A DNA stretch of 64,000 nt from Octopus vulgaris (GCA_951406725.2 OX597818.1:143902001-143966000); one strand, 5' to 3'; positions 7,139 through 31,900 are shown, counted from the first letter of the stretch. Numbers and translations are program-made. The notes: generated by a model not told the origin, from the sequence alone.

Positions 7139-9716
7139 GTTTCCAACACATTCTTCATGACTAAGCCGCATCACCAGGTCTCATGGAGGCACCCAAGGTC
7201 CGGACACTAGCACCAACTGGACATGGTCATCACCCGGCGAGCCCACCTCGGCAGTGTGCTTCTCACACGAAGCTACCATGGTGCTGACTGTGATACAGAC
7301 CACTCTTTGGTGTGCAGCAGGGTCCGATTGGCCCCAAAGAAAATCAACCGTCCCGTAGGGAAAAGCCGCCCACGCATCAACACCGCCAGGACAACCAACC
7401 CCGACCTCCGCTCGGAATTCACCAACCGCATGGAGGAGGCCCTTAAAGATCACGCAGCCACCTCATCGAGGAGAGATGGCAGATTATTCGCGACACCACT
7501 TGCAGAATAGCCATGTCATCCCTAGGAAAGAGGGAGCGGAGAAATCAAGACTTGTTTGGAGCTCACCTGCCTGAGATGGAGCCTGTCATTGCTGCCAAGA
7601 GGGAAGCACTGGTCAACTATAAGCGCGACCCATCAGAAAAGAACCTGGCTACTCTGAGAACAGCCAGAAGCGACGCCCAGAGGACGGCCAGACGTTGCGC
7701 CAACATCTACTGGCAGAACTTATGCCAGAACATCCAGTGCTGTGCTGACAGTGGTAACGTGAAAGGGATGTACGAGGGGATGAAGAAAGCATTCGGGCCC
7801 ACTGTCAGAAAGGTTGCTCCACTGAAGTCCAGAGATGGCGAGGTCATCAAGGACCAAGCGAAGCAGATGGAGAGGTGGGTCGAGCATTACCAGAACCTCT
7901 ACTCCACTGAGAATGTGGTCACCAGGTCTGCCCTCGCCGGCATTCCTGCTCTGCCTGTCATGGAGGAGCTTGACCTGCCTCCAACAAAGGAAGAACTGAG
8001 CAAAGCAATTGACTCACTCGCTCGGGGCAAGGCACCAGGGCAAGACGGCATCCCCGCAGAAGTCATCCAGTGCGGGAAGCCAGCCCTTCTGGGCCATCTC
8101 CATGAGCTGCTCTGTCAGTGCTGGGAGGAGGGCTCTGTCCCTAAGGATATGCGTGACGCAAACATCATCACACTGTATAAAAACAAAGGGGACAGAAGCG
8201 ACTGCAATAATTACAGGGGCATATCACTGCTCAGCACTGTCGGTAAGGCATTTGCCAGGGTGGTCCTGAAGAGGTTGCAAATACTTGCAGAGCGTGTGTA
8301 CCCCGAGTCTCAGTCTGGCTTTAGGGCAGAGAGGTCTACAATTGACATGATCTTCTCACTCAGGCAGCTTCAAGAAAAGAGTCGAGAACAGAGACAGCCC
8401 CTATACGTGGCCTTCATCGACCTGGCTAAGGCGTTCGACTCAGTCAGCAGGGAGGGGCTGTTTGCACTCCTGGGTAGGATAGGTTGCCCTCCCAGACTGC
8501 TGAAACTCATCACCTCCTTTCACGACGGTATGCAGGGAACAGTGCAGTTTGACGGATCGCCCTCGGAGTCATTCCCCATCCAGAGTGGAGTGAAACAGGG
8601 TTGCGTTCTGGCGCCGACGCTCTTCGGAATTTTCTTCTCCTTGTCCTGTCCTATGCCTTCAGAACGTCCGACGACGGAGTGTTCCTCCACACCAGGGCTG
8701 ATGGTGGATTGTTCAATCTTGCGCGCCTCAGAGCTAAGACCAAAGTCCGTCAGGTGCTGATCAGAGATATCCTCTTTGCTGACGATGCCGCCCTGACATC
8801 ACACAACCAACCGGGTCTCCAGAGGCTGGTCAGCTCCCTGGCGGATGCCTGCCAAGAGTTCGGCCTTACCATCAGCCTGAAAAAGACAGAGATCATGGGC
8901 CAGGACGTCGGAGGGGTCCCCAGCATCAGTGTCGGCGACCACAGCTTGCAGGTGGTGAATGAGTTCACTTACCTGGGATCGACGGTCTCCAGCAGCCTGT
9001 CCCTCGAGCCGGAGCTGAACAGACGGATTGGGAAGGCTGCTGCTGCCATGGCTAAGCTCTCCAGGAGAGTGTGGGAAAACAACATGCTCACAATAACCAC
9101 CAAGATCGCAGTGTACCGAGCCTGCGTGCTGAGCACCCTACTCTACGGCAGCGAGAGCTGGACAACATACACCCGGCAGGAATGCCGCCTCAGCGGCTTC
9201 CACATGCGGTGTCTTCGACGGATCCTTGGCATCTCCTGGAAGGACCGAGTGCCAAACGGAGTCATCCTGGAACAGACTAATATGCCAAGCATGTATGCCC
9301 TCCTCGTGCGGAGACGACTGCGCTGGCTCGGACACGTCTGCCGCATGCAGGACGGTCGCATGCCTAAAGACATCCTGTACAGCGAACTTACCACGGGATC
9401 CCGACCCAAGGGACGTCCACAGCTACGATACAGGGACGTGTGCAAGCGCGACCTGAGGACTGCCAACATCTGTGTGGACACGTGGGAGAAAACAGCTGCT
9501 GACCGCTCTGCCTGGCGTCGGACGGTGAGGAAAGGCGTTTCCATGGCTGAGGAGAGGAGAGCACAGCTGTGGTTGGACAGGCGGGACAGGAGGAGGACAA
9601 CTGCAGCAACACCCCACACGTACCCATCGATGTTCGTGTGCAGCAACTGTACCAAGGACTGCCACTCTAGAATTGGACTGTTCAGTCACAGCAGACGCTG
9701 CACATCATCAAAGTAG
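7139..9716 (+). pseudogene. RTE ORF (APE-RT), disrupted by frameshifts near ~7475 and ~8640 and by isolated stops
   Basis: ORFs 7223-7510, 7513-8760 and 8601-9716 join into one RTE polyprotein. Confidence 0.9.
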
Positions 9717-23842: not shown

Positions 23843-24045
23843 AGGCGGCGAGCTGGCAGAAACGTTAGTACGCCGGGCGAAATGCTTAGTGGTATTTCGT
23901 TCTGAATTCAAATTCCGCCGAGATCGACTTTGCCTTTCATCCTTTCGGGATCGATAAATTAAGTACCAGTAGCGTACTGGAGTAGATCTAATCGACTGGC
24001 CCCCTCTCCAAAAATTTCAGGCCTTTAGCCTAGAGTAGAAAAGAA
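23843..24045 (+). mobile_element. SINE family B copy
   Basis: aaggcggcgagctggcagaa...cctttcatcctttcgggatcgataaattaagtacc...agaaaagaaa. Confidence 0.85.
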
Positions 24046-24088: not shown

Positions 24089-24125
24089 GGCGCAGGAGTG
24101 GCTGTGTGGTAAGTAGCTTGCTAAC
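24089..24125 (+). mobile_element. 5' head (A box) of a SINE family A copy split by two insertions
   Basis: ggcgcaggagtggctgtgtggtaagtagcttgctaac matches the head of the intact copy at 31474. Confidence 0.9.
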
Positions 24126-26109
24126 TGCGCATGTGCGAGTCAGTGTTGTGTTTGCTACTGAAGCAGTGAAGATGTGCTTTTGAAGCCGTCTTGAATTGAA
24201 AACTTTGGAAGCCCCATGTAAGGTAAGATTCTGTTTTCTGGATCCAGTGGGAGTTTTTGTTGAGAATTATTTTTTACATGCAGGAAGTCCTACTGGATTC
24301 AGAATTCTGATTCTGCCGACATGTGGCAGATATATTTTTCTCGCTGAGAAAATTTTGGGGGGCGTATCCGTCTTCGAATTGTGAAAATTGTATGGTGCTG
24401 TGAAGAACTACCAATTTTACACCAATTTTTGTGGAAGTTGTGCGATCCTGGTTCGATTTAGGCCGGGAGTACCAAATGGCCAAAAGGATTTTGCTGTGTT
24501 TTTGACTTTCTTTTTAACTTTATTTGACTTTCTTTTTAACTTTATTTGACTCTCTCCGTTTTTCATTGTGACTTTCTTCGGATTTCCTTTTCTTCTCGTT
24601 TTTTAGTTTTATTCTAAATACATTTATTTAAAAAAAAAAACAAAAAAACATGGCAACAAAAGAAACCACCGCTTTGGAATGGGAGGTCGTCCCACCAAAG
24701 CTGTGGATTGAAAGTCTTGAGAAGAGGACGGTGGTCCTACGAACCTATTCTAGGTCGCGTGGAGCCATTGCCCTCTTCGACAAGAATACTATAGAGAAAG
24801 AGTTGGGGGACTACCTGCCAACTATAAAATTTATTTCTCGGGGGAGCAAATTTGCAACGGTCTGGTTGCTATTTGGTACCCCCGAGGAAGCTAGCAGATT
24901 TGCTAGCGAGCCACTGGAGGGAGAGGAAATTTTGTTCCTCCCCTCGTATTGTGGCAGAAAAGTGAAAAGAGCCTGGGTGTGTGGGCTGCCCCCGGGCACG
25001 GAGGCGGAATGGATCGAAAAGACCATCCGGCGAGGCCTGGGGGATAGCGGACCCAGACTGCTAAGTGTGAAGGTGGCTCCTGCGGTCGCCTGGCAGGGGT
25101 CGAGGGCAACCTTGACCCTGTGGACACCGGTAGCGGTGGGGGAAATGAAATTCCCGGACTTCCTGAGAATGGCTGGGCACAGGTACCCGGTGATACTCGA
25201 GGGTCGCCCCCCCAAGTGTCACCTGTGCCTGAAGCCCGGACATATCAGGAAGAATTGTCCCAGGGGCCGTAGTGGTGCCCCGGAGCAGATAGGGGAAAAG
25301 GCGCCCGCCGCCCCCTCATTGGAGGGGGAGACGATGGAAGTCGTGGAGGAGGTTGCCTCCACGAAAAGAAAGAGAAAGGCGAGCAACAATGGTTGCCCGC
25401 CAAAGAACGCTCAGGGGGCGAAGGGGGATAGCAATCCCCCGTGTCTGGTGACAGAGTCCCCTGGGTCAGCAGTCTCCCCCAAAAGAAGGAGGAGAAAAAG
25501 AAGAGGTCGGACGACTGACGTTTCTGTGTCGCCGACGGAGCCGCGGGTGGGATGTGTGCCACCCGCGGACAAGGCTCCGCCAGTGGGAAGTGTGCCACCG
25601 ACGGAGGAGTGTGAGGTCCCTCCCTGTGAAGAGGAGATGCTTCTCCTCCTTTACCACAAGGGAGAGAAGGTTGAAAAATTCTTGACTGGCTTGGGTGACC
25701 GAGAGCGTAAGGACACGGTCGGCTCAAGGAGTCCGTTATGGCCTCCGCAGGTAGCTGCGGAGAAAGTAACAGAAGATACTTTGTCAAGGGTCGCAGAGAC
25801 CTTTGAAAAGAAAGACTTTACCTTTCTCTTTGCAGGCCCCGACTTGTCGTCGCAGAGTTGTCTGCAGGCGGCAAGACAATTTGCTTCGGGGACCTGACGA
25901 GAAGAATTGTTGAACATTTTTATGCAATTTGAATCATTGTTTATTAAATGTATTTATTGAAACATTGTTTTAGAGAAGCAAAAGTCGGCGGGCGCTTTCG
26001 ACTTCTCCCATCACCATCTTCATCAACCACCACCATCATCCATTAATGTCCTTGTCCAGCCCGTAGCTACTACTCTGTATGCTGCCCTAGTGGCAAATTA
26101 TTTAAAATA
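24126..26109 (+). mobile_element. ORF1-only non-autonomous non-LTR retroelement, copy 1, inserted in SINE A
   Basis: Flanked by a 15-bp TSD aagtagcttgctaac (24111-24125 and 26110-26124). Layout is 5'UTR, single gag-like ORF, conserved 3' tail ending AATAAA. No RT. Confidence 0.85.
24650..25897 (+). CDS. L1/Tx1-type ORF1 (gag-like, ZCCHC3-like) nucleic-acid-binding protein, 415 aa
   Basis: Intact GC-rich ORF. RRM-like blocks (RTVVLRTY..WLLFGTPEEA and AWVCGLPP..EWIE), EGRPPK plus CX2CX4HX4C knuckle (CHLCLKPGHIRKNC), basic NLS-like stretches and a disordered C-terminal half. Confidence 0.85.
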   Translation: MATKETTALEWEVVPPKLWIESLEKRTVVLRTYSRSRGAIALFDKNTIEKELGDYLPTIKFISRGSKFATVWLLFGTPEEASRFASEPLEGEEILFLPSYCGRKVKRAWVCGLPPGTEAEWIEKTIRRGLGDSGPRLLSVKVAPAVAWQGSRATLTLWTPVAVGEMKFPDFLRMAGHRYPVILEGRPPKCHLCLKPGHIRKNCPRGRSGAPEQIGEKAPAAPSLEGETMEVVEEVASTKRKRKASNNGCPPKNAQGAKGDSNPPCLVTESPGSAVSPKRRRRKRRGRTTDVSVSPTEPRVGCVPPADKAPPVGSVPPTEECEVPPCEEEMLLLLYHKGEKVEKFLTGLGDRERKDTVGSRSPLWPPQVAAEKVTEDTLSRVAETFEKKDFTFLFAGPDLSSQSCLQAARQFASGT

Positions 26110-26812
26110 AAGTAGCTTGCTAACCAGACATGCGCAGTTAGTCGGTTGCTTCTTGTTGAGCTAGAGTGGACGTGAGTCCAACTAAAGAAAAAAGACCAAA
26201 AACGGAAAGTTGTCGAGGTAAGTGATTTTGTTTATTGTGAGTTGGGCATAATTTATTGCGTGCCAATTATTATTTCAGTAGGTTGTGTCCAACTCTGAGA
26301 CAATTTCGCCTGCGCTAGGCGGCTGCCGTTTTTGTGTTCATTGAAAAAAAAAAAAAAAAAAGAAAAAACAGTGGAGGGGCGTATACTCAGAATTCAATAC
26401 AGTTACTGTTAAAATTACCGTTGGCAGTAACCAGTGCTGTGTTTGAGTTTGCTGAATTTATTCCCTTGTCAGAGTACTTCGCAAGAAAAGTATAAAAATA
26501 AGCCACTATTGGATTACCTTTCGGACCCATTTTTGTGGAGGTTGTGTTGCAGTTGCGGCGTTCCAGGTTCAACCCAGGCCGGGAGTACCGCAGAATATTT
26601 TTGCTGTGTTTTTTCTGTTTATTAACTTTCTTTTGAACTTCATTTACCCCCCCCCCTTTTTGTTTTTTCTTTATTGCGACTTTCCGTTAATTTCTTCCCT
26701 TCTGTTGTGCTTTCTCCTTTTTGTTTTTTCAAAAATCTATCAAATTTATTTAGACTTTTGAACTTTTTTCTTCCTGCTTTTGAGTCTAATTTGAATATAT
26801 TTTTTAAAAAAC

Positions 26813-28057
26813 ATGGCAATGAAAAATAACAAAGTTTTGGAGTGGGAAATCATACCACCCAAAAAGTGGTTGAAGGACCGTGAAGATAGGACGGTGGTGT
26901 TGAGAACCTACTCCAAGGCACTTGACACCATCGCCCTATTCGAAAAGACGGCAATTGAGGAGGAGTTGGAGGAGTATTTGCCAACAATTAAATTCATTTC
27001 CAGGGGTGTCAAATATGGAACGGTGTGGTTGCTGTTTGACACCCCTGAAGAGGCTTGCAAATTTGCTAGCGAACCCTTGGAGGGTAAGGAAATCTTATTC
27101 CTGCCCACTTACAAAAAAAAGAAATTGATGAAAGCTTGGATCTGCGGACTGCCACCCGACATAGAACCCGAGTGGATAGAGGAGACTATCCGCCGGGGTC
27201 TGGGTGACAGCGAAACTAAGCTCCTCAATGTAAAAGTCCTTCCTGCGGCTGCTTGGGTTGGCTCGAAAGCAGTTTTGACCCTGTGGACCCAATCAGCCAA
27301 TCTGGTTTTTCCAGATTTTTTGAAAATGGCCGGGTGCAGGTACCCGGTGATGCTTGAGGGTCGCCCCCCTAAGTGTCATCGGTGCTTGGAGTCCGGCCAC
27401 ATAAAGAAGAACTGTCCTCGGGAACAAAATAGGATCCCGGAACAGTTAAGTAAAACCCCTCTAGAAGAGGGAACGATAACGGCCGAGAAAGCAGAGGACT
27501 CCTCAAGCAGAGGCCGAAAGAGGAAGGTGAGCAACAATGGGTGCTCACCAAAGGATAATAGGGATGAGGAGAGGAGGGCGAATCTTCCAGCCACGGAGGA
27601 GACGCACCCTCCCTCAGTTGAAAAGGGAAAAAAAAAGAAAAAGAGGAAGAAAAACGGGACGTTGCCGGCTGTCAGTGTGGCACCGGAATGTCGCGGAACT
27701 ACGTCGGTTGGGGTTGTGCCACCGACAAGAGAAGGAATACCGTTGGCGGAAACTGTGCCGCCAACGAAAGAACCGAATGTATTGGTCCTCTTCTATAGAG
27801 GAGGAGAAATTGAAAAAGTGATGGAAGAGCACTACAAGGGAGCACCTTTAGCCTTCACACAGGACCCCGAATGGCCTCCGCAGGTAGCTGTGGAGGCCGT
27901 GGCGTTCGACGTGACGCTAGGGCTAAAGGAGCTCAATGAAGACTATAACTTGGTCCCGGGCGACGCGAACTCGGAACTTGACTACGTTCTGAGGGAGGCG
28001 TGGTTGATGGTGGAGGGCGCGGGCACAAGCTATTTCGAGGACGATATGTATTATTAG
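26813..28057 (+). CDS. L1/Tx1-type ORF1 protein, 414 aa, paralogue of 24650-25897
   Basis: Intact ORF. The N-terminal ~205 aa align almost without gaps to copy 1 (roughly two-thirds identical by eye). Knuckle CHRCLESGHIKKNC. RKRK.SNNGC.PK and WPPQVA.E are shared. Confidence 0.85.
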   Translation: MAMKNNKVLEWEIIPPKKWLKDREDRTVVLRTYSKALDTIALFEKTAIEEELEEYLPTIKFISRGVKYGTVWLLFDTPEEACKFASEPLEGKEILFLPTYKKKKLMKAWICGLPPDIEPEWIEETIRRGLGDSETKLLNVKVLPAAAWVGSKAVLTLWTQSANLVFPDFLKMAGCRYPVMLEGRPPKCHRCLESGHIKKNCPREQNRIPEQLSKTPLEEGTITAEKAEDSSSRGRKRKVSNNGCSPKDNRDEERRANLPATEETHPPSVEKGKKKKKRKKNGTLPAVSVAPECRGTTSVGVVPPTREGIPLAETVPPTKEPNVLVLFYRGGEIEKVMEEHYKGAPLAFTQDPEWPPQVAVEAVAFDVTLGLKELNEDYNLVPGDANSELDYVLREAWLMVEGAGTSYFEDDMYY

Positions 28058-28184
28058 TAATGGACTTAAGTCCAAAAATTGAAAAATTGTAAGAGGATTA
28101 ATACCTCGTTTTGTATTAATAATGGACTGCTAAGCCCAAAATTGGAAAAATTGTAAGAGGTTTAATACCTCGTTTTGTGTTAAT
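28058..28184 (+). repeat. ~63-bp tandem duplication in the 3'UTR of copy 2
   Basis: aatggact..aaaaattgtaagagg.ttaatacctcgttttgt.ttaat occurs twice. Confidence 0.85.
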
Positions 28185-28353
28185 CTTTTTAAAAAGAACA
28201 ATGTTTTAGAGAAGCAAAAGTCGGCGGGCGCTTTCTGTCTTCTCCCATCCTTATCATCTTTCTTTCATTATCATTCACCTCATTAATGTCCTCGTCCAGC
28301 CCGCAAAGCTAACTTAATCTGTGTACTGCCTTTATGGCAAATGTTTTGAAATA

Positions 28354-28745
28354 AAGTAGCTTGCTAACCAAGCACATGGTTCCGGGTTCAGTCCCACTGC
28401 GTGGCATCTTGGGCAAGTGTCTTCTGCTATAGCCTCGGGCCGACCAATGCCTTGTGAGTGGATTTGGTAGACGGAAACTGAAAGAAGTCTGTCGTATATA
28501 TGTATATATATGTATGTGTGTGTATGTCTGTGTGTATGTGTTTGTCCCCCTAGCGTTGCTTGACAACCGATGCTGGTGTGTTTACGTCCCCGTCACTTAG
28601 CGGTTCGGCAAAAAGAGACCGATAGAATAAGTACTGGGCTTACAAAGAATAAGTCCCGGGGTCGATTTGCTCGACCAAAGGCGGTGCTCCAGCATGGCCG
28701 CAGTCAAATGACTGAAACAATTAAAAGAGTTAAAAGAGTTAAAGA
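28354..28745 (+). mobile_element. Remainder (B box, body, tail) of the split SINE A
   Basis: Resumes aagtagcttgctaaccaagcacatggttccgggttcagtcccactgc..., colinear with 31496-31900, and ends in an (aaagagtt)n tail. Confidence 0.92.
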
Positions 28746-29626
28746 GAGTTGTTGATGCTACTAAATCTCTGATTCTTTGTAAAGTATCTAAGTTTTTTTG
28801 TTAATTTATGTTAATTACAAATGTTTGCCAGCTTTTGGTTGACTTTGATTTACATTTTTTATTACTTCGTTGTTTAGTAGCTCAATGATATCATGAGCAC
28901 GTATGCATCCGTTCTTCTAAGTTGGTAGGGTATAATTTGACGGGAATTTGGCTGCTATTTCTTGCATGTTGAGTGGCCACACAAAGTCTCTTTTATTGCT
29001 AGAGGAGTTTCATTAGTTATTTGATCATAGAACTGCGTAACGCATACTTATTTTACTATAACACTTCCTTCACTTTTGACAAACTGGGATATACTAATAT
29101 TCTCGATTGGAGATATTTCTTCATTTCTACATTTCTCTGACTTCTCCCTCTTTGATGACGGTCTACTCAGCTTATGGAATCCTTACCCGATACCATGATC
29201 CACATGCTTGGCTATTCTAGAAACAGCTGTAAGAGAGTCTATATATTTATATTTCCTGCCTAAATTAGATATTTCTTTCGAGTGATGCCAAATGGCTTGC
29301 TTTTTCAATTTTACAGATATAGGGTGAAAGATAATTAATACAAATATTGTTGTCTGTGGAGGCATATTTTTGTTGAAAAAGGAAATAGTAGTCCTTTGGT
29401 TGCTATTTCTAAAATTTTCGGTATGTGGTCAAGCAACTTGTTGCAAAATCCTTATTGTTATAAATATATATATATATATATTAAACAGCCGAAATTACTA
29501 AGATGATCCGGTTCCCGACTGAAGATTAGAGGCTTCGAGTGACCCGTCTGTTTTTTTTGTGTCGTCTCCTTGTGTGTTTTTGCGTTCTTGTCCCACTTTG
29601 TAATTTATATTTTATATTTAATTTCT

Positions 29627-31473: not shown

Positions 31474-31900
31474 GACGCAGGAGTGGCTGTGTGGTAAGTA
31501 GCTTGCTAACCAACCACATGGTTCCGGGTTCAGTCCCACTGCATGGCATCTTGGGCTAGTGTCTTCTGCTATAGCCCCGGGTCGACCAAAGCTTTGTGAG
31601 TGGATTTGGTAGACGGAAACTGAAAGAACCCTGTCGTATATATGTATATATATATATTTATATGTGTGTGTGTGTATGTGTTTGTGTGTCTGTGTTTGTC
31701 TCCCTAGCATTGCTTGACAACCGATGCTGGTGTGTTTACGTCCCCGTCACTTAGCGGTTCGGCAAAAGAGACTGATAGAATAAGTACTGGGCTTACAAAG
31801 AATAAGTCCCGGGGTCGATTTGCTCGACTAAAGGCGGTGCTCCAGCATGGCCGCAGTCAAATGACTGAAAGAAGTAAAAGAGAAAAAAAGAGAAAGAGAA
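31474..31900 (+). mobile_element. Intact (empty-site) SINE family A copy
   Basis: A box TGGCTGTGTGG, a single aagtagcttgctaacca, B box GGTTCAGTCCC, internal microsatellite and aaagag tail. Confidence 0.9.

Follow-up and report, generated by a model that had tools for sequence, protein, structure and literature searches.

Some long interspersed nuclear elements (LINEs) of the Tx1 clade, among them Tx1-Mar of crocodilians and Tx1L of Xenopus, prefer to insert into other transposons, and two further families of that clade, Kibi and Koshi, use (TC)n and (TTC)n targets (PMC4494074). Lineages that encode only the first open reading frame (ORF1) are also known: HAL1 (half-L1) is a non-autonomous LINE derivative that encodes ORF1p only and arose repeatedly (PMC5753468), and the HeT-A-type telomeric Jockey elements of Drosophila are ORF1-only lineages that need the ORF2 of another family (PMC13534243). 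R1 of Drosophila leaves a target-site duplication (TSD) of 14 bp and forms tandem arrays through insertion into it, and its melanogaster-type transcripts carry target sequence at the 5′ end, the annealing of which gives precise junctions (PMC2718515). Here we describe a locus of Octopus vulgaris, at positions 24,089 to 28,745 of a 64,000-nucleotide stretch (GCA_951406725.2 OX597818.1:143902001-143966000; hereafter the window), at which two ORF1-only units, U1 and U2, are stacked inside a short interspersed nuclear element (SINE). Very probably, a LINE with an apurinic endonuclease (APE) has a single base of this SINE's head as its insertion site, and old ORF1-only families use its ORF2 in trans.

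The octopus system resembles Tx1-Mar and SINEU in that non-autonomous partners share the target and insert in tandem around the TSD. Tx1-Mar and Tx1L, however, target DNA transposons or long terminal repeat (LTR) elements, whereas the octopus system targets a SINE head; SINEU passengers are non-coding SINEs, whereas the octopus passengers encode ORF1; and the available portion of the source does not describe an element-borne half target for Tx1-Mar and SINEU (PMC4494074). Like HAL1, the octopus units encode ORF1 only, but HAL1 derives from mammalian L1. The U1 ORF1 has a homologue in the Tx1-like partner LINE and gave no match to an L1 ORF1 family. HAL1 is not known to have a fixed target and ends in a 3′ poly(A) tail; the octopus units, in contrast, are site-specific, lack poly(A) and meet the target motif directly at their 3′ end. 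They work like HAL1 and are not classed here as its members. With the HeT-A-type elements they share diversification into clades and mixed head-to-tail arrays (PMC13534243), but those belong to the Jockey clade at chromosome ends, whereas the octopus site is APE-defined, interspersed and present in tens of thousands of copies. R1 inserts into rDNA, and the sequence that it carries lies upstream of the cut and yields a deletion (PMC2718515), whereas the octopus elements carry the downstream half, which rebuilds and corrects the site; R1 offers a partial precedent for annealing of the cDNA end. As in Kibi and Koshi, sister families in octopus end in a microsatellite, (TC)n or (ATT)n, whereas the SINE-targeting lineage uses complex SINE sequence. 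A 2026 paper on octopus repeats gives L1-Tx1 families without targets in its accessible text (PMC13282606). No SINE-targeting Tx1 family, and no SINE target with ORF1-only passengers, was found in the literature searched, which did not cover Repbase Reports, Dfam and subscription journals, where these families may be held. What appears to be new is the combination of a SINE target with ORF1-only passengers; transposon-targeting Tx1 elements, HAL1, telomeric ORF1-only elements and R1 arrays are already published.

The split SINE, its insertion site and the probable partner LINE

The 15-mer AAGTAGCTTGCTAAC has exact matches in the window at 24111, 26110, 28354 and 31496, where shuffled sequence yields 0.09 on average, and two additional SINE copies carry it with mismatches. 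Successive motifs at the locus are 1999 bp and 2244 bp apart. Both the SINE head (24089-24110 plus the motif) and the body from 28354 align with intact copies, in agreement with the earlier note, which had described a split SINE with the motif once in the intact copy and three times here. The DNA identity between U1 and U2 is 57% in the 5′ untranslated region (UTR) and 79% over the final 150 nt, with 70% for the N-terminal and 51% for the C-terminal half of the ORF; they are separate families and not a local tandem duplication, as that note had held. No tblastn match to the ORF2 of the partner LINE was found in 24089-28760, and a search for terminal repeats in U1 and U2 found none, so that the units are neither LTR retroelements nor Gag-only LTR derivatives and do lack, as claimed, reverse transcriptase (RT), endonuclease and LTRs. 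Each has a single ORF, whose description as gag-like needs amending: its best Pfam match is zf-CCHC, below cut-off, and the structure model of U1 ORF1 (predicted local distance difference test, pLDDT, 89) contains two RRM-like folds (Z ~7-8) and a CCHC knuckle, not a retroviral Gag capsid. RRM-type domains with a CCHC knuckle are typical of Tx1-clade ORF1 proteins; the partner agrees with this through the zf-CCHC match of its ORF1 and through the RRM-like folds modelled for the homologous U1 ORF1.

The insertion point was examined across the 2.8 Gb genome. A degenerate 25-nt tail pattern matched 530 exact 3′ ends genome-wide, which continued with AAGTAG in 454 cases and with AAGWAG in 487; reversed-pattern controls gave 0. 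Dispersed, multi-copy units at the same SINE base had been predicted, and this is what the tails show. Among distinct young tails in fetched DNA, the motif came next in 115/115. For U2, 40 of 2,067 candidate 3′ ends were scored and 30 fetched (the window's own copy among them); all 30 ran into the motif, followed by SINE body in 28 and by another unit in 2. The 30 U1 ends fetched from 1,237 candidates likewise all met the motif, followed by another unit in 28 and by SINE body in 2. The target SINE is a short (~400 bp), non-coding, high-copy interspersed repeat whose head has 59,959 exact 31-nt matches in the genome. U2 and partner copies are 1.0% (n = 30) and 0.8% (n = 24) diverged, whereas the SINE bodies behind them are 9.5% and 6.4% diverged, which indicates separate entries into pre-existing SINEs. 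Insertion thus falls almost exclusively on one base in the head of SINEs that were already diverged when entered. U1 and U2 sequences are multi-copy in DNA runs of two other organisms as well.

The earlier note had proposed seeking longer copies through the shared 3′ tail, and these exist: a 5.44-kb LINE with ORF1 and an APE-RT ORF2, the likely autonomous partner, occupies the same target (reference copy L085:1501-6939, found reading through arrays). The description of the units as SINE-targeting, ORF1-only elements is upheld by the 3′ end and target that they share with this LINE. All 24 full-length copies (96-97% to the query, which is counted) end at the motif in a SINE; the ORF2 frame reaches at least 1140 codons in 9/24, and both ORFs are intact in 3/24. 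The 1133-aa ORF2 product carries Exo_endo_phos (PF03372), RVT_1 (PF00078) and zf-RVT (PF13966) above cut-off, with L1 ORF2p as its closest solved relative (E 1e-66; R2 at 1e-19); the partner ORF1 has zf-CCHC above cut-off, and the RT is 63% identical to an Argonauta hians protein. The last 25-45 nt are common to the partner, U1, U2 and other units, and the partner shares arrays with U1 and U2. It shows the signature of target-primed reverse transcription (TPRT), with a fixed 3′ junction, 5′ truncation, a TSD and no LTRs; clear 5′-truncated copies belong mainly to passenger families, those of the partner being L086 and an 85-nt fragment in L148. The partner also has the target-sequence preference that is frequent in the Tx1 clade. 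Because no named Tx1 reference sequence is among the listed homologues in protein searches, its membership is judged by architecture and behaviour, which point to the L1/Tx1 group of APE-type LINEs and to a fixed insertion site.

Most of the 150 scored RT matches are 85-100% identical to the partner; the remainder are sister families at 73-80%. Sister 3′ ends are (TC)n at 3/5 loci and (ATT)n at 2/5 (L181, L183, L185 and L182, L184; 73-77% RT identity), with a head-to-tail pair of the (ATT)n family on C29. These microsatellite-ending sisters suggest a lineage-specific switch to the SINE.

Several individual copies had unusual structures. At G000:C1:111116899-111116960, two element 3′ ends lie back to back on opposite strands, with the target start after each. 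An 88-nt mini-element (L171:2924-3030) fuses the U2 5′ end to the 3′ end within the SINE site; a partner copy with an internal deletion and both ends kept is stacked behind a U2 (L073:5509-7750); and older ORF1-only units at L168 and L170 contain later SINE or other insertions.

Rebuilding of the target site and growth of arrays

SINE subfamilies differ inside the motif, allowing alleles to be traced. Where the target has T at motif position 13 (T13), the 5′ motif copy carries A in 11/11 informative full-length U2 or partner copies, and at targets with a variant at position 11 it carries C in 6/6; this count leaves out, as uninformative, the older families whose own motif is of the TTAC type (C9a, L147, L177 and the F4/F5 rows) and three single-base oddities (L084, L117, L169). 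The 5′ motif therefore has the allele of the element and not that of the target, so that insertion rebuilds the site, and by this allele test the right half of the full-length 5′ motif is element-borne. 5′-truncated copies instead duplicate the local allele (L162, 10 nt; L175, 15 nt); L148 has a 15-nt duplication with one mismatch and L086 one of 8-10 nt, and the TSD length given below is based on these four copies. Unusual 5′ motif variants turn up again at unrelated loci. The 15- and 17-bp repeats flanking the two units, reported as perfect TSDs, are literally perfect and yet not pure TSDs: the extra CA of unit 2 and the right half of the 5′ motif copy are element-borne. The argument that unmutated TSDs prove two independent insertions is therefore invalid and has to be given up.

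In each unit, the first two target bases supply the end of the AATAAA, an overlap that suggests RNA ends reading through into the target. Older families carry TTAC in the motif and young ones TAAC, and young copies prefer TAAC targets: T13 occurs in 22/83 young-copy targets vs 67,044/103,345 (65%) genome-wide. The possibility that read-through RNA converts the 3′ motif was considered and rejected. The A13 plus downstream-C haplotype shows no excess at occupied sites (9/58 vs 1,846/13,770 genome-wide), and the TAAC preference therefore does not come from conversion of the 3′ copy.

In the mechanism that we propose, the endonuclease would nick the bottom strand between T and AAGTAG, and TPRT would be primed there at the 3′ end of an RNA that probably extends into the target, as the overlap of the poly(A) signal with the target indicates. 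The top strand would be cut 10-15 nt downstream. Full-length RNA would begin inside the donor's motif, so that the cDNA end could anneal to the overhang, replace mismatched target bases and restore the whole site on the 5′ side of the new copy. No listed run containing the units is recorded as RNA; in one that may be RNA, contigs cover both units and one of them begins at 24118, which is not counted as evidence, since a contig does not show where a transcript starts. The ORF1-only families (U1, U2 and others), which retain just an ORF1 of their own and the common 3′ end, would borrow the ORF2 of the partner. Arrays would grow as the rebuilt site is used again, through serial insertion, template switching or both, with local duplication contributing in part.

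The partner is intermixed with U1, U2 and further ORF1-only types in arrays that count 4, 7, 8 and at least 9 units. Among the first 100 tails listed, 14 are directly followed by another listed tail, vs ~1% under random site choice; stacking so far above independent choice among ~60,000 sites needs a mechanism of its own. The next element is another unit in 23/25 cases for U1, 3/60 for U2 and 1/30 for the partner, in samples biased to best hits. Haplotypes of array units recur across contigs, and in three arrays the 5′-most or inner units come from younger clades than the 3′-most U1, in line with arrays growing at the 5′ site that insertion rebuilds. L152 is a two-unit stack of older families. 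Both serial re-insertion and template switching fit the array data. Given a short terminal redundancy of the RNAs, a single ORF2 could use homology to pass from a completed cDNA to a further RNA template, and mixed arrays of ORF1-only and autonomous units could form in single events. That the RNAs carry a target copy at both ends, that mixed arrays arise in this way and that the motif tracks the youngest SINE subfamily is a proposal we advance tentatively, as somewhat less probable than its opposite.

Arrays could instead be local tandem duplications or assembly artefacts. Some neighbouring or alternating units are the same or nearly so (C1a_1 and C1a_2, 0 differences; C5a_3/5 and C5a_4/6, 1 difference), the within-array distance is 10.2 substitutions vs 15.9 between arrays, and no listed contig in the other runs spans the locus, their head-to-body joints coming from other SINE copies. 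Different families are nevertheless mixed within arrays, and units of different arrays can be 0-1 substitutions apart while neighbours differ by up to 38. Identical or alternating neighbours fit either duplication in place or a single donor used repeatedly. Duplication or artefact probably explains part of the U1 runs and is an improbable account of the whole system.

The nature of the target and the origin of the ORF1-only families

A further alternative is that insertion is really aimed at a host gene for a tRNA or another small RNA, with the SINE hit by resemblance. Small-RNA genes are published targets of some Tx1 families (PMC4494074), and A-/B-box-like motifs can be seen by eye in the SINE head; tRNA-derived octopus SINEs are cited in the literature. 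On the SINE head, however, ARAGORN made no tRNA call and Rfam had no match to a tRNA, the young tails of U2 and the partner enter SINE body in 86/90 cases (the remaining 4 being array units where inspected), and young copies favour one SINE subfamily allele, as the T13 counts above show. We consider a small-RNA gene quite unlikely as the present target; an ancestral tRNA target is possible.

A simple origin of the units, as internal deletions of the current autonomous LINE with ORF1 as a passenger, is marginally less plausible still. It would account for the 3′ end shared with the partner, and an internally deleted partner copy, C5b, exists; but U1 ORF1 is just 28% identical to partner ORF1, the ORF1s of U1, U2 and older families group in a clade of their own, with a ratio of nonsynonymous to synonymous substitution rates (dN/dS) of 0.06-0.40, and a relative at 60% identity is annotated in Octopus sinensis. 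Between U1 and U2, dN is 0.19 and dS ~1.9, near saturation, for a dN/dS of ~0.10 over 178 codons. Such low ratios across distant ORF1s mean that a functional ORF1 has long been maintained, and by this measure the ORF1 of the ORF1-only families is under purifying selection; it presumably acts in cis.

The 12,032 ORF1 candidates were sampled by scoring 150 and fetching 20 of these, at 64-87% ORF1 identity; an ORF2 followed ORF1 at 0/20 of these loci, which hold further families with differing 5′ UTRs, mostly at the same SINE site. Two ORF2 fragments were not taken as parts of these units: that in L165 is a separate flank insertion, and that in L144 comes after a different ORF1-like frame. A fourth ORF1 type, of 408 aa in a 1.5-kb unit (L062:7771-8997, minus strand), is about equally far from U1/U2 and the partner and probably represents a second, independent loss of ORF2; its unit shares an array with U1/U2-type units. 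Mosaic units (L141, L153, L166, L169, L177), with a U1-type ORF1 start and a U2-type 3′ part or with U2 bodies behind other 5′ UTRs, suggest recombination or template switching between families.

Least credible is a SINE-head/unit/SINE-body composite or U1-U2 dimer that arose once and was amplified whole, by hitchhiking or read-through: U1 directly precedes U2 at 8 loci examined and a contig covers the U1-U2 junction in one possibly-RNA run (weak), but the divergence of the SINE bodies, which carry subfamily alleles, exceeds that of the elements 8-10-fold, truncated copies carry their own TSDs, the U1 and U2 trees are incongruent in the sample, and a single U1-U2 master is ruled out by the polyphyly of dimer U1 copies and by U2 copies behind U1 that fall into two subclades mixed with solo copies.

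Some observations weigh against site-specific insertion with a rebuilt site and mobilisation in trans. The case for mobilisation by the partner ORF2 is drawn from the shared 3′ end and target, and an autonomous family with an ORF1 of the U1/U2 kind may have escaped sampling, given that 150 of 12,032 candidates were scored. Genome-wide, 43/530 tails are not followed by AAGWAG and 76 not by AAGTAG; six of the latter, from the first 100 listed, were fetched and comprised four variant target sites, one SINE joint further downstream and one tail without a SINE. C5b lacks the position-7 variant of its target, and L126 has it on both sides. Many copies carry homopolymer frameshifts; these may come from errors of assembly, by which array haplotypes would be blurred too.

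Features of the window and their significance

Table 1. Coordinates in the window of the two stacked units, their target motifs and the reference SINE.
Feature	Position	Strand	Basis or remark
SINE head 5′ of the insertion point, A-box-like motif by eye	24089..24110	+	alignment to intact copies; same head 5′ of dispersed insertions
Rebuilt target motif, left part from target, right part from U1	24111..24125	+	allele test
Unit 1 (U1), ORF1-only non-LTR element	24118..26109	+	copies 94-99% identical on several contigs; 5′ boundary placed by inference within the motif (position 8-11)
U1 ORF1, 415 aa, two RRM-like domains, CCHC knuckle, basic low-complexity tail	24650..25897	+	
U1 conserved 3′ end	25960..26111	+	AATAAA at 26106-26111 uses the target's first two A
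Target motif separating U1 and U2	26110..26124	+	exact motif match
Unit 2 (U2), ORF1-only non-LTR element	26117..28353	+	30 near-full-length loci 96-100% identical, own copy counted; 5′ boundary placed by inference
U2 ORF1, 414 aa	26813..28057	+	
U2 conserved 3′ end	28200..28355	+	AATAAA at 28350-28355 extends into the target
Original target motif (28354-28368) and SINE body with short repeated tail	28354..28750	+	
Empty intact copy of the target SINE, reference	31474..31870	+	

The U2 3′ UTR contains a ~65-nt tandem duplication (window 28060-28190), present in most other U2 copies examined. The 5′ UTR features at window 24127-24136, 24220-24228, 24425-24503 and 26529-26613 comprise a GC-palindromic motif that resembles an NRF1 site, a splice-donor-like motif and three short blocks shared by U1 and U2 through conservation. 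A different high-copy SINE-like repeat lies just 5′ of the target SINE (window 23845-24040). At window 7447-9716, an unrelated LINE ORF2 in two overlapping frames, presumably RTE-like, is 28% identical to the partner RT.

These results add a SINE, a mobile target with changing subfamilies, to the known targets of site-specific LINEs, and the microsatellite-using sister families in the same genome offer a natural comparison for target change by an APE endonuclease. They place long-lived, selected ORF1-only lineages at an interspersed, non-telomeric site, where the need for ORF1 made in cis becomes a directly testable question. The element-borne 5′ half-motif provides a clean genomic readout of second-strand joining and a caution that perfect TSDs can be rebuilt instead of copied, and the system bears on repeat annotation in octopus genomes. 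Should the RNAs indeed carry the target at both ends and build mixed arrays in single events, the whole would form a parasite system of three tiers, with ORF1-only lineages co-evolving with a site that is defined by the SINE and rebuilt at each insertion.

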